Shown here in pieces: positions 8,651-34,483 of a stretch of DNA of 64,000 nt. The DNA is taken from contig OX597821.1 of NCBI GenBank assembly GCA_951406725.2, forward strand, positions 39,432,001-39,496,000, given 5' to 3'. The first letter of the stretch is position 1, and every line of letters begins with the position of its first letter. The DNA is from Octopus vulgaris. Its lineage: Eukaryota. A program made the position numbers and the translations under genes. The notes under the pieces were generated by a model. The model saw only the letters and a list, made by a program, of their open reading frames with translations, had not been told where the DNA came from and made no database searches.

Positions 8651-9370
8651 ATGTATATATACATATGTATATATATACATGTATGTATATATATATATAT
8701 ATACATACATATATACATGTATATATACATATATACATACATATATACATATATACATACATATATACATATATACATACATATATACATATATACATAC
8801 ATATATACATATATACATACATATATACATATATACATGTATATATACATATATACATACATATATACATGTATATATACATATATACATACATATATAC
8901 ATGTATATATACATATATACATACATATATATGTATGTATACATGTATGCATACATATATACATGTATGTATACATATATACATGTATATATACATGTAT
9001 ACATACATATATACATGTATATATACATATATACATACATATATACATGTATATATACATATATACATACATATATACATGTATATATACATATATACAT
9101 ACATATATACATGTATATATACATATATACATACATATATACATGTATATATACATATATACATGTATATATACATATATACATACATATATACATGTAT
9201 ATATACGTATATACATACATATATACATGTATATATACATATATACATACATATATACATGTATATATACATATATACATACATATATACATGTATATAT
9301 ACATATATACATACATATATACATACATATATACATGTATATATACATATATATATACATATATACATAT

Positions 9371-9429
<59 letters not shown>

Positions 9430-10935
9430 CATATATATATATACATATATACATATACATATATACATATATATATACATATATATATATATACATATAT
9501 ATATACATATATATATACATATATACATATATACATATACATATATACATATATACATGTATATATATACATATATACATATATACATGTATATATATAC
9601 ATGTATATATATACATATATACATGTATATATATACATATATACATGTATATATATACATATATACATGTATATATATACATATATACATACATATATAC
9701 ATGTATATATATATACATATATACATACATGTATATATATACATATATACATGTATATATATACATATATACATACATATATACATGTATATATATATAC
9801 ATATATACATACATGTATATATATACATATATACATGTATATATATACATATATACATACATATATATACATATATACATACATATATACATGTATATAT
9901 ATATACATATATACATACATGTATATATATACATATATACATGTATATATATACATATATACATACATATATACATGTATATATATATACATATATACAT
10001 ACATGTATATATATACATATATACATGTATATATATACATATATACATGTATATATATACATATATACATCTATATATATACATATATACATGTATATAT
10101 ATGCATATATACATGTATATATGTACATATATACATGTATATATATATACATGTATATATATACATATATACATGTATATATATATACATGTATATATAT
10201 ACATATATACATGTATATATATATACATGTATATATATACATATATACATGTATATATATATACATGTATATATATACATATATACATGTATATATATAC
10301 ATATATACATGTATATATATATACATGTATATATATACATATATACATGTATATATATATACATGTATATATATACATATATACATGTATATATATATAC
10401 ATGTATATATATACATATATACATGTATATATATATACATGTATATATATATACATGTATATATATACATATATATGTATATATATATACATGTATATAT
10501 ATATACATGTATATATATATATATATGTATATATATACATATATACATGTATATATATATACATGTATATATATATACATGTATATATATACATATATAC
10601 ATGTATATATATATACATGTATATATATATACATGTATATATATACACATGTATATATATACATGTATATATATATACATGTATATATATACACATGTAT
10701 ATATATATACATGTATATATATATACATGTATATATATACATGTATATATATATACATGTATATATATACACATGTATATATATATACATGTATATATAT
10801 ATACATGTATATATATATACATGTATATATATACACATGTATATATATACATATATACATGTATATATATATACATGTGTATATATACATATATACATGT
10901 GTATATATATATATACACAAGTATATATATACATG

Positions 10936-10966
<31 letters not shown>

Positions 10967-11002
10967 GTTATATATATATATATATGTATATATATATGTA
11001 TG

Positions 11003-11051
<49 letters not shown>

Positions 11052-11088
11052 ATATATATATATATATATATTTTTGTATGTATGTATG

Positions 11089-11141
<53 letters not shown>

Positions 11142-11156
11142 ATATATATATGTATG

Positions 11157-11208
<52 letters not shown>
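8651..11208. repeat. ~2.5-kb compound TA/CA/TG low-complexity tandem array
   Basis: Units such as ATATATACATGT and ATATACATAC; gives 800-900 aa artefact ORFs on both strands. Confidence 0.99.
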
Positions 11209-12906: not shown

Positions 12907-13817
12907 TTAATCCGTTAGCATTTAAACCGGCCATATCCAGCCAAAATATTCGACCTGTTTTATGCTCAAACAAACCAGGTCTGGCATCTCTACAATGACC
13001 TAACTGAAACTAAAGAATTACATTATTGAAATCTTGAAAGCACCAAGTATTGCATGAATAATGTTAAAAGTACCATCTAGAGATTTCGTTACCTTCGTGC
13101 GATCAGGTCAGCAGATCCGTTTCAAGAAGAAGATCAAGATACTTCCTGTGAAAGATGAAAAGTGGAACGGCTATTGGAAGGTGGCTGCAGATTTACCTGG
13201 GCACCAGGGATTCTTTCCCATCCCAATTACGAAAAAACCAGATATTTTGATGTGGTGTGAAAGAAGGAAAGTTGTAAATCTAGTCGAGTTAAAGGTTCCT
13301 CATGAAGATAATATGGATGCCACTCAGGCTTGAAAGATTGACTGTTATGTAAACCACCTCAAGGAATGTGAAGACGCAGGCTGGAAAGCAGAACATTTTC
13401 CAATCGAAGTCGGATGTAGAGGGTTCGTTGGACACAGTATGAGACGACTGTTGTTATCGTTAGGCCTAATTCATCTTAAAGTCAATACCACCATGACTGA
13501 TATCCAATCTACAGTGGAGAAGGCTTGCCACTGGATTTGGTTAAAAAGAGACGATGAGCGATGGCTAGAAGAATATTGAGCTTTATTTGATAACCAGCTG
13601 ATCTAGCAAGCGGGGTCTCATATCAGATGCAGTGCGTATTGATGCCATCAAGACACAGGCCCCGGAACGGTGCACATTCTCTCCTGATGGCCCCATACAC
13701 TTGCTGGCTTCCAGTATGCAGAGTTTTTGACTGGTAGCACTTGCATGTACAAGTTGTTTGCATGACATATAAATAAGAATTGCATTTGACAGACGAATCT
13801 GAATGCTAAAGAGTTAA
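12907..13817 (+). mobile_element. piggyBac-like MITE split by a HERO insertion
   Basis: TTAA-tccgttagcatt ... gaatgctaaagag-TTAA; the two halves match the 7850..8074 copy. Confidence 0.7.
13063..13771 (+). pseudogene. 5'-truncated decayed copy of the HERO-type retrotransposon (RLE domain and 3' UTR)
   Basis: Collinear with 31555..32265; peptide KKPDILMWCERRKVVNLVELKVPHEDNMDA; premature TGA at 13331..13333. Confidence 0.95.
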
Positions 13818-26494: not shown

Positions 26495-27587
26495 AGAATC
26501 AATATTTCATTGTATCGGATAATAATATATTGTATCACAAAACAAATATAAAGGTGAGCTTGTTCGTGTGTTTGAAATGGCTATCAGGACAAGTATTTTC
26601 AATTTCATTATTACATTAAATTTGTTGAAATTTATTCCTAACTTATTTTAATTAGGGATTAAAAAACATGTTTTGCTAATCACTTTTTAAGATCAGGAGA
26701 AACTACTTCAGATTGAATGTGATAAAATTAATATTTAATATTGTTTCAAAACCAATCAATATTGGAATTGATAAACATTTATAAGATGATGAAAATGAGA
26801 TTGAGACAATAGATTAGCACCAAGATATTAGATTATATTCTTGGAAGATATATCTTCTATAAATCGTAACTCAACACTAGGGACTGTTCCAGCATAAATG
26901 AATGACTCGATAATTATCAATATCTATGTAATTTCCTTAATTACCTATAATAGAAAAAATGTAATATTTATGACACTTTGTTGAGAATAATAGTAATTAA
27001 AATGTATGAAATGCAATAAAAGAAATCAAAATTAATTCAAAGAAAAATGATATTCTTAATAGGTTGTTATTAGTAAATAAATTAGCTGATGATCTCCAAC
27101 AAATCTTTCAAATATTAAAGACTCTCCTCGTTTATTGTTGATGAAATACTTTAAACCAAATTGAATGTAATCTGGCAATTTATTTTAATCAATATAAAAT
27201 GCTTCCCACATACACAAACTCATTATAGTTTTATAAGGTTAAGGAAAATGAAATTAAACTTACAATTTCTCAATTAAAACCTCATATATTTTTTGGACAT
27301 AACAGTTGAACTAGAAATCTATTGTCATTTATCAGGGATGTGATAAGTAAACCATTTTTCTCAATTACCACCAAGTATCTACTAAAAAGAATTCCCTTGC
27401 TAAATCTGACACTATTTAACATAAGATGTCCGTCCGTAAGTAGTTCGAAACTCATGAATTATTATAGACCTATTTTTTTATTTATTATAAAATTACCGAC
27501 AATGGTTTAGAATTACAGAAAAAAGTTATCTTTAAGTGATTACTGTCAATGTTTTATTACTTCAATATAATTTGTTAATCTACAAAC

Positions 27588-27920
27588 CATCATCATCATC
27601 ATCATCATCGTTTAATGTCCGCTTTCCATGCTAGCATGGGTTGGACGATTTTGACTGAGGGCTGGCGAACCAGATGGCTGCACCAGGCTCCAATCTTGAT
27701 CTGGCAGAGTTTCTACAGCTGGATGCTCTTCCTAACGCCAACCACTCTGAGAGTGTAGTGGGTGCTTTTTACGTGCCACCGGCACGGGGGCCAGTCAGAC
27801 GGTACCAGCAATGACCTCGCTTGAATCTTTTTTACGCATGCCACTGGCACAGCTGCCAGTAAGGCGACGCTGGTAACGATCATGCTCAAATGGTGCCCTT
27901 TTACGTGCCACTGGCACGGA
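27588..27920 (-). mobile_element. RTE-type LINE 3' UTR fragment
   Basis: (CAT)n plus gtttaatgtccgctttccatgctagcatggg...gtgccaccggcac repeats. Confidence 0.85.
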
Positions 27921-28795
27921 AATCTTGTCTTTGTGTAAAGGAAATATGATATCTTTTACATTCATGAAAAACTCTCTGGAAATCTCTGGTATCTCTTTTT
28001 ATCTTTCATTTGTTTGTCATAAGACAGTGGCCAAGCTGGAGCACCGCCTTGAAAGATTTTCATTGAATGAACTGATCCCAGTATTTATTCTTTTCTTTAA
28101 GGCTACGACTTATTTTGTTATTCCCTTTAGCTGAACTGCTAAGTTGCGAGGAAGTAAACACTCCAGCACTGGTTGTCAAGCAATGGTGGACACACACACA
28201 CACACATATGTGTGGTGTGTGGAAAAAGGTTGAATTAGACTCATCCTTTAATTTGGAAGTTTCAAAAAAAAAAAGATTTCTAATATAGATTCTTCATATT
28301 TTGTTTGTAGCTTACTGGCATAAAATTGCAAATATGAAAATAATACTTGTAGATGATGTGTTGTGAATTTATGGAAAGAAATCCCTTAAAACTCAACAAT
28401 TTTGTTTAAAATGGAGAAGAGAAGGTGTTAAAATATATAAGAGAATTTTAATTCATGCAGACGATCGTTTTGTACAGAGATATAAAAATCATGAAAATTC
28501 ATGGTTGAATTGAATTGAATTAAATATCACTGTGATATATAATTAATTCAATTAATTCTATTCAACCATGAATTTGCATGATTTTTAGACAAGAGGACTG
28601 CTCGGAAAGACCAGCGGACAATAGGAAAGACTATCGACACCAGGAAAGACTGGCGGAGGCTACGGACTTACGATCCTCGCCTCTGTATTTTATTGTAACA
28701 GACATAACAGGAAAAGACAGCCCCATGATTGACCGAGAGGGGGAGTCGAGAATCAATCAAACCCAGTCAGCACGGAAACGACCTTTGAAACGAAC

Positions 28796-31700
28796 ATGAT
28801 TATTCATTCGAACAGCGGACGAAATGCAAACAACTTTGGATGCAAGCTGTGCTATAGAACCTTTGCAACTGAGAGAGGCTTGAAGATACATCAGGGAAAG
28901 ACTTGTGAGAAGAGGACAGAGCAGTGTGGATCGTCAGATCGTAAAACACGTGGCAAATCATCCCCGGACTCAAACCACAGCGGATCGATAAATGCTACAG
29001 CACAGAACTCTTCACGTGAAGAAACTACAAGTCATGAAACTGGTGCATCGGATAATACTCAGAGGAAACCGAGGGTTTTGTGGCCTGCTGCTAATGAGAA
29101 AGTGAAATATAAAGAGTTTGAAAACAAGGTTTGTCGGACTCTTTATAAAATGACAGGCTCTACAGTGGAAAAACTGGGAAAATTATCAAGCTCAATATAC
29201 GATGTAGCAAGAGATTTATTTGGAATAAAAGAGAATATCCGACTAGAGAAAGGAAAGTGTGGACCAAGCAGGAGGATCAGAAAAATGCAGCAGTTGAGGA
29301 AGGAAAAGTCCGACTTAAGAAAGAGATGGAGATGTGCTGCACTAGATGAGAAACCTGGCCTTGCGTTGCTGTATAACGATTTGAAGAGGAAATGTCGTTA
29401 TGTGCAACGACATATTCGCCGATATGAGCGTCGAAAAGAAAGTAAAAGGACTCGAGGGCAGTTTCTGAAGGACCCGTACGGGTTTACTAAGAAGCTGTTC
29501 ACTGAGCCGAAGAGTGGTACTTTATCGTGCACTAAAGAAGAATTGGATGCTCATATCAAGGAAACCTACAGCGATCCACACCGTAATCAGCCGCTGCCAT
29601 CTCTACATGGGCTAAATCATCTCTCAGGACCTGATATCGAATTCCAGATTGGGGACATCAGGGAGAGAGAGGTGAATGACTTCGTAAGAAAAGCTAGAGC
29701 GAAGAGTGCCCCAGGAGGTGATGGCGTCTCATATAAAGTCTACAAATACTGCAATCGTCTGCGAAAGAAGCTCTTCGTCCTAATCCGACAACTGTGGCGC
29801 GAGGAGACTATAGTAGAGGATTGGTGTAAGGCAGAAGGTATATACCTGCCGAAAGAGGCCAATGCAAAGACCATAAAACAGTTTAGGCCGATATCCTTAT
29901 TGAATGTGGAAGGCAAGATCTTTATGGGAATTCTGTCGAGGAGAACAGTGACATATTTACAGAGTAACGGATATGTTGATGAATCTGTTCAAAAGGCCGG
30001 AATCCCCGGGATCCCTGGATGCGTTGAACACTGTTTTTCGATTTGGAAAGCGATTCAGGATGCCAAACAGAACAAGAAAAGTCTGAACGTGGTATGGCTC
30101 GACCTAGCTAACGCGTATGGTTCAGTGCCACACAAATTACTAATAACAGCCATGGACCACTTCCACATTCCTGACAAAGTGATCAAAATAATGAGGATGT
30201 ACTATGAAAGTTTCGAAATGAGGTTTACAACTGGAAGTTTTACAACAAATTGGCACCGATTGGAGGTTGGCATTGCTGCTGGCTGTACAATATCTGTCAC
30301 GTGGTTTATCTTAGTCATGGAGTTGATTTTGAAAGGTGTAGATTTTTCGGAACAAATCGCCCATGTACAATCGCCTAAGAAAGCCTTCATGGATGACGTG
30401 ACACTTCTAGCTACAGATAAACAAATCATGCAGAATGCCCTTTTGAGATTAGACGAACGTGTAAGGTGGTCAAGGATGCGATTTAGAGCAAAAAAGTCGC
30501 GTAGTCTGACATTTGTTAAGGGAGTGCAGAAAGAATTTAAATTTCGAATATCGGAAGAAAGCATTCCAACAGTCAAGGAAGAGCCCGTCAAGAGCTTGGG
30601 ACGAGTATACGCTGGAACATTGTCAGATAGAAGTCGTGGGATTGAAATTATGAAACAGGCCGAGGCTGGGTTATCAGCGATTGATGTTTCGAAGTTACCA
30701 GGTAAATATAAAATTTGGTGCTTGCAGTTCGGCCTGTACCCGCGACTTGCGTGGCCACTTTTAATATACGAAGTAGCATTGTCACGAGTTGAAAAGATCG
30801 AACAAAAATGTAATGTGTTCATTAGAAAGTGGCTAGGTCTACCTCGTATGTTGAACAGCTCAGCTCTTTATCGTAAAAGAGGTTCGTTGCAGTTACCAAT
30901 AGCATCAATAGTCGAAATATATAAGTTGGGGAAGATACGGACGGTCATGATGCTGAGAGAATCGAAGGATATGGAAATCAGGCGTAACCCACCAGAGGTG
31001 AAAACAGCCAGGAAGTGGAAAGCAGAAGCAGAAACTGACAACATCTTGTCTTCTCTTACACACAGAGATATGGTGGGAGCAACGCAGAACCATCGGAAGG
31101 GATTTGGTTTTGGCGCGGATCAGTTCAGACCGTTTGCAAGCATGATGCCGTGTGAACGCAGATCTGTTGTTAGCAACAGCGTCAAAACAAGAGAAGCAGA
31201 GAGAAGAGAGCTTCATTTGATCCGATGTGTTCATCAAGGTCAGATGACGAGATGGGAAGAACATGTTGTTGAGAGGAAGATAAGTTGGGATGAGATGTGG
31301 AAGTGGACAACATCTCGGCTGAGTTTCCTGATTCGTTCATCTTATGATGTTTTGCCATCACCTACGAATCTAGTAAGATGGAACGTCTTAGAGAATGACG
31401 TCTGCAAATGTGGAAAAGTCGGTACACTAAAACATATTCTTTCCAACTGTTCGTTAGCATTGAACAGGTACACATGGAGGCACAACTTGGTCCTTAAGGT
31501 TATCTTCAATGCTATAAAGAATCAAATTCATCTCAACAACACTGAGGAAAAATCGTTAAAAGTACCATCAAGAGAGTTCATTACCTTCATGCGACCAGGT
31601 CAGCAGATCCGTTTCAAGAAGAAGACCAAGAAACTTCCTGAGAAAAATGAAAAGTGGAACGACTATTGGGAGGTAACTGCAGATTTACCTGGGTGCCAGG

Positions 31701-32071
31701 TTTTCTTTCCCATCCCAGTTTCGAAAAAACCAGATATTTTGATGTGGTGTGAAAGAAAGAAAGTTTTAAATATAGTTGAGCTAACAGTTCCTCACGAAGA
31801 TAATATGGACGCCGCTCGAGCTCGAAAATTAAACCGTTATGAAAACCTCCTCGAGGAATATGAAGACGCAGGCTGGAAAGCGGAACATTTTCCTATCGAA
31901 GTCGGATGTAGAGGGTTTGTAGGACACAGCGTGAGACGACTGTTGTTATCGTTAGGCCTAACTCATCGTAAAGTCAATACCACCATGACTGATATCCAAT
32001 CTACAGTGGAGAAGGCTAGCTACTGGATTTGGTTAAAAAGAGACGATGAGCGATGGCTAGAAGTATATTGA
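28796..32071 (+). CDS. Zn-finger / reverse transcriptase / restriction-like endonuclease polyprotein (1091 aa)
   Basis: N-terminal CKLC-x12-H-x4-C; RT motifs KSAPGGDG, FRPISLLN, WLDLANAYGSVPH, GIAAGCTIS, FMDD; CKC-x7-H-x4-C then WRHN; RLE KPDILM..VELTVPHE..K..RY..PIEVGCRG; no stops or frameshifts. Confidence 0.96.
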   Translation: MIIHSNSGRNANNFGCKLCYRTFATERGLKIHQGKTCEKRTEQCGSSDRKTRGKSSPDSNHSGSINATAQNSSREETTSHETGASDNTQRKPRVLWPAANEKVKYKEFENKVCRTLYKMTGSTVEKLGKLSSSIYDVARDLFGIKENIRLEKGKCGPSRRIRKMQQLRKEKSDLRKRWRCAALDEKPGLALLYNDLKRKCRYVQRHIRRYERRKESKRTRGQFLKDPYGFTKKLFTEPKSGTLSCTKEELDAHIKETYSDPHRNQPLPSLHGLNHLSGPDIEFQIGDIREREVNDFVRKARAKSAPGGDGVSYKVYKYCNRLRKKLFVLIRQLWREETIVEDWCKAEGIYLPKEANAKTIKQFRPISLLNVEGKIFMGILSRRTVTYLQSNGYVDESVQKAGIPGIPGCVEHCFSIWKAIQDAKQNKKSLNVVWLDLANAYGSVPHKLLITAMDHFHIPDKVIKIMRMYYESFEMRFTTGSFTTNWHRLEVGIAAGCTISVTWFILVMELILKGVDFSEQIAHVQSPKKAFMDDVTLLATDKQIMQNALLRLDERVRWSRMRFRAKKSRSLTFVKGVQKEFKFRISEESIPTVKEEPVKSLGRVYAGTLSDRSRGIEIMKQAEAGLSAIDVSKLPGKYKIWCLQFGLYPRLAWPLLIYEVALSRVEKIEQKCNVFIRKWLGLPRMLNSSALYRKRGSLQLPIASIVEIYKLGKIRTVMMLRESKDMEIRRNPPEVKTARKWKAEAETDNILSSLTHRDMVGATQNHRKGFGFGADQFRPFASMMPCERRSVVSNSVKTREAERRELHLIRCVHQGQMTRWEEHVVERKISWDEMWKWTTSRLSFLIRSSYDVLPSPTNLVRWNVLENDVCKCGKVGTLKHILSNCSLALNRYTWRHNLVLKVIFNAIKNQIHLNNTEEKSLKVPSREFITFMRPGQQIRFKKKTKKLPEKNEKWNDYWEVTADLPGCQVFFPIPVSKKPDILMWCERKKVLNIVELTVPHEDNMDAARARKLNRYENLLEEYEDAGWKAEHFPIEVGCRGFVGHSVRRLLLSLGLTHRKVNTTMTDIQSTVEKASYWIWLKRDDERWLEVY

Positions 32072-32119
32072 GTTCATCATAACCAGCTGATCTAGCAAGC
32101 GGGGCCTCATATCAGTGAG

Positions 32120-32185
32120 GGGGCCGGTGCGCATTGATGCCGTCGAGAGGTAGGCCCCGAAACGGCGCGCATTCTCTCCTGATGA
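32120..32185 (+). ncRNA. Putative strand-permuted (pseudoknotted) hammerhead ribozyme in the HERO 3' UTR
   Basis: GUC at 32142..32144, GAAA at 32159..32162, CUGAUGA at 32179..32185, with stems I, II and III all pairing (see findings). Confidence 0.6.
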
Positions 32186-32388
32186 CCCCATACACTTGCT
32201 AGCTTCCGATATACGGAGCTTTTAACTGGTAGCACTTGCATGTGCAAGTTGTTTGCAAGATATATATACGAAACGATCGTCTGCATGATTTAAAATTCTC
32301 TTATATATTTTAACACATTCTCTTCTCCATTTTTATCATAATTGTTAAGTTTTATGGATTTCTTTCCATAGATTCACAACACACCAAA

Positions 32389-32668
32389 TCATCATCATCA
32401 TTGTTTAACGTCTACTTTCCATGCTGGCATGGGTTGGATGGTTTGACTGAGGGCTGGTGAGCCAGAAGGCTGCACCAGGCTCCTATCTGATCTGGTAAAG
32501 TTTCTACAGCTGGATGCCCTTCCTAACGCCAACCACTCCGAGAGTGTAGTGGGTGCTTTTACGTGCCACTAACACAAGAGCCAGTCAGGTGGTACTGGCA
32601 ATGACCACGCTCGAATGTTGTTTTTCATGTGCTACTGGCACATGTGTCAGTACGGCAATGCTGGCAGT
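32389..32668 (-). mobile_element. RTE-type LINE 3' UTR fragment
   Basis: (CAT)n tail and shared 3' UTR motifs. Confidence 0.85.
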
Positions 32669-32706
<38 letters not shown>

Positions 32707-32709
<3 letters not shown>

Positions 32710-33009
32710 TGGTGACCGACCAGGCTATCAGAAGTTGTTACACATCGCTGGTCACAATGTGCTTCGCATTGTTTTAGCCTTCAAATGACCCCACCCCACT
32801 GGCTAAGCGAGCAGGCCAACAGAAGAAAGGGTGAGAGAAAGTTGCAGCGAAAGAGTACGGCAGGGATCGCCACCACCCCCTGCCGGAGCCTCGTGGACCT
32901 TTAGGTGTTTTCACTCAATAAACACTTACAACGCCCGGTCTGGGAATCGAAACCGTGATCCTATGACCGCGAGTCCGCTGCCCTAACAACTGGGCCATTG
33001 CGCCTCCAC
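32707..33009 (-). mobile_element. tRNA(Arg)-like-headed SINE family D
   Basis: Head gtggaggcgcaatggcccagttgttagggcagcggactcgcggtc...ggtttcgattccc; by recollection it resembles octopus OR-type SINEs. Confidence 0.75.
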
Positions 33010-34483
33010 GCAGTATATATATAGGTATATTCCATGACTTTCTTTCAATTTCTATCTGTTGAATATTCTTGGTCAACACAAGGCTATTGTAGAAGGTACT
33101 TGCCCATGGTGCCATTCAGTGGACTGAACTGAATCCAGGACCATGTAGTTGGGAGGCAAACTTATTACCATACAGCCATGCTTTGACAGACTAGTCTTCT
33201 AGATCAATAGAATAAGCGTGATTCATACAAAAAATAAGTCCTGGGGTCGGTTTGTTTGATTAAAGGTGGTGCTCCAGCATGGCCACGGTCAAATGACTGA
33301 AAAATGTAAGAGAATAAAAGAACACACACACATATTTTTAATGAATGAGTTGCAGCTTTATTTTGCTTCATATATAGTTTATAATACTTGAGCTAGAGTG
33401 TATACGTGTGTGTGTGTGTGTGTACTTTACCTGTTATTAATGTCTGTTAAAGCATAATGGTCAGGTGTTCATGAAATGACATTTTCAATGAAGAAATCGT
33501 TTCAAAATGGTAAGGAGATACATTGCTGACATTTAGCATGGAGATCAAATGAGTGCTGTTTACTTACTGGAGATCAGTTGAGCTTTACTTAACATGGAGA
33601 ATGTTTTCTTAGAACAGCATTTTAATATGGTTACATTCTGGTATTGCTTGGTCTGCAGTATATTGAAATGCTGCATGAGGAATCATTTTCCATTTCTACA
33701 AAGTTGAAATTGCTCGGTTTACAAAGATCTTGATTCTTCAGACTGTGAACCTGCAATCTCTTCGATAACCCTCAACAAGAACCTACACATCTATCTTCAA
33801 GTACGGCATTTGTACATTTTATTTATCTAACATGAAAGTAGATTCGTAATTGAAGACACATCTGTCAGGGCTATCTTCACTTGGGTCAGCAAAGAAGCCT
33901 CTATTTGGTTGCTAGACTTACTAGAAAGAGTAATCAAATTCCAACAAGTCACAGCTTGTTCTTTAGAGATCTAAAAGGACAAGAACGTCGTGGTTGGATT
34001 GTCTGTGGTCATGTCTCTGCTGACCAAAGCTGATTTTCTTGTGTTGTTTCTTTCAGACTTTTAACTTTAGTTGAGGATTGTGACTTTAGAAGTAAAGATG
34101 ATCATTTTAATTAGACAGTCACCATTATACAAACAATTTTTAATTAGACAATCACCCTTAATGAGGCAATTTTGAAGTAGAGAGTCGACATTAATTAGAC
34201 AATTTTTCTTCACTTTACAATTACTTTGACATTTCTGATTGTCATCCTCATTAGATCTTCAGAGTTTGAGCAGAGACCTTTTGGCATTACTGCTATGTTG
34301 ATGGAAACTATGATTTTCAGGCCAAACTTGTTGAAAGTGTAAGTTAGGTCACTCCTAAGTCTCTGTCTAATGCGAGGCTCATATATAAGCCTTAATTGCC
34401 AAAGAAGCAATCTAAATATGGAACATCCCACATGAAAAGTCAGTAGTATTATTCTCCAGTATGAAGCAACTTTGAGAGTGTAT

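Follow-up and report, generated by a model that had tools for sequence, protein, structure and literature searches.

A split hammerhead ribozyme motif in the 3' UTR of an octopus LINE, and its possible place in a circular RNA life cycle

The element and its surroundings

The window analysed here, a stretch of 64,000 nucleotides from Octopus vulgaris (contig OX597821.1, positions 39,432,001 to 39,496,000), carries a copy of a non-LTR retrotransposon with a ribozyme motif 3' of its single ORF (Table 1). The copy is truncated ~55 nt into its own 5' UTR and ends at ~32260-32268. RVT_1 (E 4.9e-19) was the sole Pfam domain found in the ORF, R2 proteins were its best solved relatives (E 1e-17), and the C-terminal CCHC and PD-(D/E)xK-type motifs are common to 54 homologues, the endonuclease motifs having been read from the alignment. 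A single ORF with reverse transcriptase (RT), CCHC knuckle and PD-(D/E)xK endonuclease, together with dispersed 5'-truncated copies, identifies a non-LTR element encoding a restriction-like endonuclease (RLE), and an earlier sequence-only reading had correctly placed the motif in the 3' UTR of such a LINE. We found 3057 first-look candidate copies in the host genome, with 99-100% identity in the 40 that were scored, and 696 exact matches to the 21 bases 3' of the predicted cut. The element is therefore described here as a young, high-copy RT/RLE LINE.

We provisionally call the element HERO-like; its database matches are unnamed or 'uncharacterized'. Elements of the HERO clade are described as inserting mostly without target specificity, with some families in microsatellites (PMC4640811), and the flanks of our copies, which are mutually unrelated, AT-rich and often (TA)n, fit this habit. 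The single ORF with RT, zinc knuckle and RLE, and dispersed insertion that is often into AT-rich or microsatellite DNA, are likewise shared with the clade, and neither a ribozyme nor a tandem mechanism is mentioned in the available part of that account (PMC4640811). Identity as a Penelope-like element or retrozyme was rejected, as Pfam gives RVT_1 only, the nearest structures are R2 and the hammerhead topology differs.

Elsewhere in the window lie an older (88%), 5'-truncated second copy of the element with a decayed motif (13056-13771) and a 2.5-kb (TA)/(TACA) microsatellite (8653-11208) that accounts for long frames in all six readings. The element is nested in a short AT-rich element (28447-28587, 32264-32300) with terminal inverted repeats, 28447-28480 being the reverse complement of ~32262-32298; this host element has an internal palindrome at 28484-28586 and is probably a MITE. 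No clear target-site duplication was seen at the window insertion.

Table 1. Features of the retrotransposon copy and of its predicted ribozyme in the window
Feature	Position	Strand	Remark
Non-LTR retrotransposon copy (RT and restriction-like endonuclease, HERO-like)	28588..32268	+	Copy boundaries
Single ORF, 1112 aa stop to stop	28733..32071	+	N-terminal C2H2-like motif, RT, CCHC knuckle, PD-(D/E)xK-type endonuclease motifs
Px 5' strand (closing helix, with GGGG 32101-04 next to the junction)	32092..32104	+	Pairs with 32186-32202, -15.4 kcal/mol
P4 hairpin, 3' of the Px strand and 5' of G10.1	32105..32119	+	Hairpin ends 32105/6 and 32119/20
Stem II 5' strand GGGGCC, G10.1 = 32120	32120..32125	+	Pairs with GGCCCC 32153-58
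Helix 'I' 5' strand GUGCGC, corresponding to the stem I-II clamp of type SGC	32127..32132	+	Pairs with GCGCAU 32167-72; clamp as described in PMC10085705
Bulge of 6 nt on one side, separating helix I from stem III	32133..32138	+	k-turn-like G-A pattern in most relatives instead
Block S: stem III strand GCCGU 32139-43, GUC triplet, stem I strand GAGAGG 32145-50	32139..32150	+	Cut predicted at the 32144/32145 bond
Block G: stem II strand GGCCCC 32153-58, GAAA 32159-62, stem III strand ACGGC 32162-66	32153..32166	+	
Helix I 3' strand, stem I strand UCUCUC 32173-78, CUGAUGA 32179-85 (block C without its stem II strand)	32167..32185	+	
Px 3' strand, starting directly 3' of A9	32186..32202	+	
Zone of cDNA initiation, where copies have their 3' ends (+113 to +124 relative to the cut)	32258..32268	+	

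A hammerhead core closed by a four-way junction

The hammerhead strands noted by the sequence-only reading begin and end 49-114 nt 3' of the ORF stop. All of them were recovered with the partners it had assigned, and each duplex folds in isolation either fully or minus one terminal pair (-6.4 to -12.5 kcal/mol). Compared with the hammerhead core consensus (PMC3088659), the window holds a complete core: C3 U4 G5 A6 N7 G8 A9, G12 A13 A14 A15 and U16 H17. The blocks run in the order S > G > C, and the claim that this lies outside types I-III stands, since those types are circular permutations of C > G > S around a three-way junction.

The sequence-only reading had left A9 unattached and bounded the motif at 32120..32185, and both points required correction. 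A9 (32185) joins CCCC 32186-89 directly, and this strand pairs with GGGG 32101-04 to form a closing helix, Px, which is extended by pairing of 32092-99 with 32195-202. The motif, with Px and the P4 hairpin that had been overlooked, thereby spans 32092-32202. Px and P4 abut A9 and G10.1 with zero unpaired bases, making a perfect four-way junction, and in the predicted structure two crossings of this junction, whose four arms are stem II, the core at its G12-A9 end, Px and P4, take the place of the A9-G10.1 bond. A course in which A9 leads into its own stem II strand was rejected, as CCCC and GGCCCC do not pair, and CCCC covaries instead with the Px strand that lies upstream. C32105 can also pair in 50/90 ORF-anchored copies, which have a longer G run than the five G of the window copy; length variation of the G run at ~32119 is more likely slippage than a scar.

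A four-helix descriptor (U16, GAAA with at most one mismatch, YUGANGA and the four helices) scored 23 at the motif and, over both strands of the window, at most 16.5 at any other site. Its maxima in Markov resamples were 16 (447 kb, motif composition) and 19 (768 kb, window composition), so a chance origin of the motif is excluded. Rfam ribozyme families gave zero matches in window 27000-34000 at E<=10, and a nested minimum free energy fold did not recover the motif (z -1.0), as would be expected of a pseudoknot. Taken with the conservation described below, we regard a conserved hammerhead fold as almost certain.

Relation to type SGC hammerheads

Eckert, Friedrich, Weinberg and Weinberg (2023; PMC10085705) split the hammerhead into blocks S, G and C. 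In their type SGC (HRIMA-1 and variants), a linker of ~3 nt joins stems I and II, a fourth helix 'I' is present, all four helices were proven by compensatory mutants and cleavage in vitro proceeds at 0.007-0.13 per minute (PMC10085705). The motif in the window resembles this type in its S-G-C order, short linker (2 nt here, typically 3 there), clamp helix, full core and circular strand order. It differs in the placement of the stem II strand and of one half of the clamp helix, both 5' of everything else, and in the Px and P4 junction at A9/G10.1. Thus the sequence-only reading was right to propose a new topology only in part: the order NUH > GAAA > CUGANGA with a fourth helix is already published as type SGC (PMC10085705), whereas the splitting of block C is new relative to it. 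That scheme treats block C (stem I strand, CUGAnGA, stem II strand) as continuous and assumes that nothing can interrupt it (PMC10085705). On the evidence of its strands, the window motif would work like type SGC but is not a member as defined, its block C being discontinuous.

The setting is also different. Type SGC is reported only from metatranscriptomes and CSG only from metagenomes, with none in known organisms except one bacterial GCS candidate (PMC10085705), whereas the window motif sits in an animal LINE. In the supplement to that paper the word 'HERO' is absent and retrotransposons are named only in a reference. In the open-access papers searched, we found no description of a split-block-C form or of a hammerhead in HERO-like elements, and type-SGC hammerheads were met only in the 2023 paper (PMC10085705).

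A viroid hammerhead tolerates a single extra base at A9/G10.1. Against activity of the split form stand the assumed integrity of block C (PMC10085705) and the core insertions of natural hammerheads elsewhere, which impair or slow cleavage (PMC3088659).

Conservation and covariation in related elements

Conservation and covariation in other elements, proposed as a check by the sequence-only reading, were both found. A search with 13 aligned C-terminal regions gave 79 loci of relatives (the best 80 of 273 confirmed; 31-48% protein identity), and the descriptor parse succeeded in 55 of them within 450 nt of the protein match. Among the 24 unparsed relatives, 12 lie on contigs that end within 190 nt, L085 ends 7 nt past the triplet, and six show the motif by eye, either farther downstream (L067, L069) or with mismatches (L119, L122, L127, L132). 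The motif is absent in five relatives (L090, L103, L095, L099, L137).

The 53 distinct cores, window included, have C (23), U (16) or A (14) and never G at position 17, and U (31), C (11), A (8) or G (3) at position 7; neither pattern is imposed by the descriptor. A position 17 that is never G and a position 7 that is free form the pattern of active hammerheads, which supports cleavage by these cores. The 10.1-11.1 pair is GC in 46 cores, GU in five and other in two, with G at 10.1 in 52/53; the 16.2-15.2 pair is GC in 50 and AU in three, and the 1.1-2.1 pair takes five pair types. Zero unpaired junction bases occur in 49/53 cores, a figure mildly biased by a parser that penalised gaps, and Px reaches at least 4 bp in 48/53. 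In the window and the parsed relatives alike, Px directly follows A9 and G10.1 lies 50-70 nt upstream, and the linker from the stem I strand to the stem II strand, 2 nt in the window, is 1-8 nt in relatives. In 36/53 cores a k-turn-like G-A pattern separates stem III from helix I, but the subclade of the window lacks this pattern and has the one-sided bulge; a k-turn in the window copy was rejected accordingly.

Covariation was assessed in a MAFFT alignment made from sequence only, covering 45/53 cores after exclusion of eight near-duplicate, truncated or misparsed rows. Pairing held in 83.8% of 1302 cells, compared with 58.6% when shuffled and 37-44% when slid, and 29/31 pairs vary on both sides (351 such cells versus 115), with the caveat that columns were picked by majority vote of our own parse and that the sequences are related. 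Seven rows, including the window, are misregistered at stems I/III and thus count against the structure. Changes on both sides affect 5/5 pairs of stem I, 4/5 of stem II and 5/6 of stem III, with 78-95% of cells paired, as well as 5/5 pairs of helix I and 8/8 of Px.

A parallel in fish, which the sequence-only reading had suggested, is supported indirectly: in six named fish proteins, read-through adds a tail resembling DHPRLGRPGEGV, and this tail matches the translated 5' half of the motif of L126 at 10/12 residues, with a stop just past GUC. About 13 of the 42 relatives with enough sequence run, in assembled contigs, from the motif or 3' UTR into 5'-UTR-like repeats (14 by regular expression, one of them false). 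No relative was found in viral contigs, and a search of genome contigs gave three short fragments without a 3' UTR. Pieces of animal-type protein on short contigs of two bacterial assemblies (L140-L142) are probably contamination.

Copies that start at the predicted cut

Copies starting at 32145 are expected because cleavage would leave an RNA 5' end at G32145, where RT must stop. We surveyed starts in 90 copies, drawn from the first 100 in chromosomal order and anchored on the 21 bases 3' of the cut. Four start exactly at 32145, the most at any of ~260 upstream positions, followed by three at -121. Genome-wide, where three mismatches were demanded directly before the 21-base anchor, 9/696 host copies start exactly at 32145, and all nine matches are true boundaries: eight stand against unrelated DNA (three of these being among the four found in chromosome order) and one is joined to an ORF piece of the element.

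Comparison positions gave two true starts at +1 (four matches), one ambiguous start at -1, one at -7 and one at +27 (two matches), such that the cut site holds 9/14 starts over five positions (binomial p 4e-4). The hot spot at -121, chosen post hoc, has four true starts (seven matches) of 900, which is not significantly below the 9/696 of the cut site (Fisher p 0.09); with it added, the cut site holds 9/18 starts over six positions (p 0.001). The start signal at the cut is sharp but modest, at a few percent of copies. The remaining ~97% of copies cross the cut site intact, which fits an uncut template equally well as a sealed one.

Scars at the bond are rare: L308 carries a 19-nt duplication ending exactly at C17, and L392 has lost G1.1. 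Among 90 ORF-anchored copies the bond is free of indels, the nearest being a 9-nt deletion that ends 2 nt upstream. Priming at the cleaved 3' end was rejected, as 0/90 ORF-anchored and 0/30 upstream-anchored copies end at the cut, and a contig of run X19 starting at 32145 was set aside because it resembles a graph branch. From the starts and the conserved core we conclude that the element RNA is very probably cleaved after C32144.

Tandem insertions and the template that was copied

Copies that include the 5' UTR were chosen by that region alone (30 fetched of the 40 best of 83 candidates), and two of the 30 have one boundary in common and may be duplicates. Twenty-two run upstream beyond their own start into 3' UTR, 17 of them through the cut site, with scattered boundaries; of the rest, one starts at +113 and seven within the 5' UTR. 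None of the 30 starts at the cut or at +124/125. Whole insertions were obtained for 20 of the 22 copies that run past their start, and 17 contain two units, with 17/17 junctions free of indels. Template jumping as the routine path at the head-to-tail junction was rejected on this precision. In tandem copies the zone where cDNA synthesis starts continues unbroken into the 5' UTR.

Within one insertion, the upstream unit matches the downstream one at 400/405 subfamily-diagnostic non-CpG sites, compared with 4164/5150 (81%) across insertions. Three insertions have private alleles common to both units, and no site consistently differs between upstream and downstream. Additionally, the 3' ends of copies, scattered from +113 to +124, match the junction sequence up to +123, with the junction-like bases C at +119 in 47/106 copies and G at +123 in 31/106. 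Because the units agree, the junctions are precise and the 3' ends match the junction, one unit appears to have been read twice per tandem insertion, and the annotated boundary shows no trace of an RNA end. The predicted cut would then be the sole detectable RNA 5' end. Contigs spanning the head-to-tail junction in three presumed-RNA runs provide no evidence, as the junction is also present in DNA.

Eight of the 30 5'-UTR copies (L153, L155, L160, L162, L164, L167, L171, L172) are internally deleted, at ~0.6-1.5 kb. Each has its own breakpoints, all keep both ends and the ribozyme, and six of the eight run beyond their own start. These forms are candidates for retrozyme-like mini-circles.

A proposed life cycle and its alternatives

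We propose that element RNA is cut, circularised, primed internally and copied round the circle. A read-through transcript of a head-to-tail insertion would carry two ribozymes, and cleavage by both would release a unit of ~3.74 kb starting at G32145. Its 5'-OH and 2',3'-cyclic phosphate ends, kept together by the ribozyme helices, could be ligated by the ribozyme or by a host RtcB-type ligase. The element protein would then prime cDNA on target DNA ~115-124 nt 3' of the cut, pairing with the RNA there, and the RT would cross the sealed site, the ORF and the 5' UTR, often continuing past its own start. The resulting insertions of a partial plus a full unit would again carry two ribozymes, and unsealed molecules would yield the 120-nt copies that stop exactly at the cut. 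In the structure envisaged, the continuous strand from C11.1 to G12 keeps stem II stacked on the G12-A9 pair, with Px and P4 forming the second stack; the alternative stacking of the four arms would disrupt the core and might act as an off state. Judged from genomic copies, we give this scheme as a whole slightly better than an even chance.

The most serious alternative is that linear read-through tandem transcripts are primed internally and no circle forms, the cut serving to trim the RNA, to limit its level or to provide an uncapped 5' end that is translated. There are precedents: the Penelope element PAc primes internally on uncleaved RNA, its hammerhead cleavage being dispensable for insertion in vitro (PMC11167929), and self-cleavage alone can drive cap-independent translation (PMC13725137). 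The intact crossing of the cut site by most copies is in keeping with such transcripts, as are young copies whose 1175-codon frame opens 139 nt past the cut with no ATG for ~60 codons. However, linear tandem transcripts predict separate upstream and downstream lineages, with the upstream one eroding, and the units instead agree at 400/405 sites and show no consistent difference; moreover, 0/22 of the copies that run past their start begin at the cut. We consider this alternative possible but unlikely.

Another possibility is a nicked circle, in which base pairing within the ribozyme product complex holds the monomer ends together and the RT jumps the nick in the manner of R2, without covalent ligation. 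Template jumping of this type is established for R2Bm, and it usually leaves untemplated bases. The rare scars at the bond in L308 and L392, and a switch from the cut site into the ORF in L359, are what such jumps might leave, yet an indel at the bond occurs in 0/90 ORF-anchored copies, which makes a nicked circle rather improbable as the usual template.

The sequence-only reading had also offered a catalytically silent scaffold for RT binding, in which a hammerhead-derived fold is kept only as a protein binding site that sets the priming position. The split core, the location of the motif just upstream of the priming zone, like the 3' UTR binding element of R2, and four relatives (L094/L135, L131, L136) in which the helices persist but AAAA replaces GAAA, possibly through decay of the copies, could be read in this way. 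Such a scaffold gives no reason for hammerhead rules at both position 17 and position 7, nor for copies starting at 32145, and we judge it very unlikely. Finally, a motif that works only as a dimer of two RNAs sharing strands, like minimal Penelope hammerheads, is scarcely credible: dimer cleavage is known for Penelope-like hammerheads and tandem copies exist, but all stems here have at least 4-6 bp, type-SGC RNAs of the same knot cleave during transcription (PMC10085705), and dimerization would not restore the A9-G10.1 link. Of the double pseudoknot or dimer that the sequence-only reading had thought necessary, the former thus has precedent in type SGC and the latter is unnecessary (PMC10085705).

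Parallels in other mobile elements and implications

Circle copying from ribozyme-cut RNA, the reading we favour, has parallels in Penelope-like elements and retrozymes, which also form tandem or partial-tandem copies with one hammerhead per unit, and among which internal priming by PAc and the circular RNAs of retrozymes recall the proposed life cycle (PMC6765202, PMC11167929, bioRxiv 10.64898/2026.07.22.740005). Those elements use type-I hammerheads and a GIY-YIG protein or none, whereas the element in the window has an R2-like RT and endonuclease and another ribozyme topology. With R2 and other LINEs bearing 5' HDV-like ribozymes it shares an RLE-type single-ORF protein, and in those elements too a ribozyme releases the RNA of the element from a longer transcript, with a possible benefit for translation (PMC6765202, PMC7650587). 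The R2-type ribozyme, however, is of another class and lies at the 5' end, where full-length copies begin (PMC6765202, PMC7650587), in contrast to a ribozyme 120 nt before the apparent 3' end in a motif that most copies cross.

Circle copying would be a new spreading route for this class of elements. In its widest form, our proposal is that a whole clade of autonomous LINEs replicates via RNA circles produced by this ribozyme, a seventh hammerhead architecture whose catalytic core incorporates the four-way junction as an on/off switch, with the true RNA ends at the cut site and the annotated 3' end an internal priming site; we hold the chances of this to be evenly balanced. If it is true, non-circular RNA permutation extends from unassigned metatranscriptome RNAs to animal genomes. 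It would also break the stated rule that the CUGAnGA block of the hammerhead cannot be split (PMC10085705), and descriptor and Rfam searches would therefore miss a widespread ribozyme. RLE-type LINEs would gain a second life cycle (cut, circularise, prime internally) beside the R2 paradigm, and would be linked to two groups with a tandem structure that has long been puzzling, Penelope elements and retrozymes. An R2-like protein using circular templates would additionally matter for RNA-templated gene insertion.

Other sequence features of the element family

Relatives without the hammerhead include a family (L090 2656-2900, L103 2748-2900) whose 3' UTR runs into its 5' UTR. Short words in this 3' region are reminiscent of twister ribozymes; Rfam finds nothing there and nothing stands out in its fold. 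Another ribozyme in place of the hammerhead would be telling, if in one family only. Rfam gave no ribozyme family at the 3' ends of L103 or six other relatives. Between the stop codon and the hammerhead, a tRNA-like sequence is seen by eye in L068, L070, L111, L112, L121 and L125; in L068 and L111, Rfam at E<=0.5 finds no tRNA.

Translation of the element may be unusual. The open frame of young tandem copies, 1175 codons long, starts 139 nt 3' of the cut site and runs ~60 codons before its first Met, and this long Met-free start in intact copies suggests non-AUG or internal initiation. In the window copy (28725-28745) the G run just 3' of the first ATG is one G shorter than in young tandem copies, and one host copy (G000:C5:25186015-25186644) has an open frame of 1877 codons as against the usual 1112-1175. 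The 5' UTRs of the window copy (28588-28745) and of L077, L097, L102, L114 and L126 hold repeated GGAAAGAC words common to distant families and a C-rich/G-rich hairpin-like word directly before the ORF, which together form a second predicted conserved RNA element.
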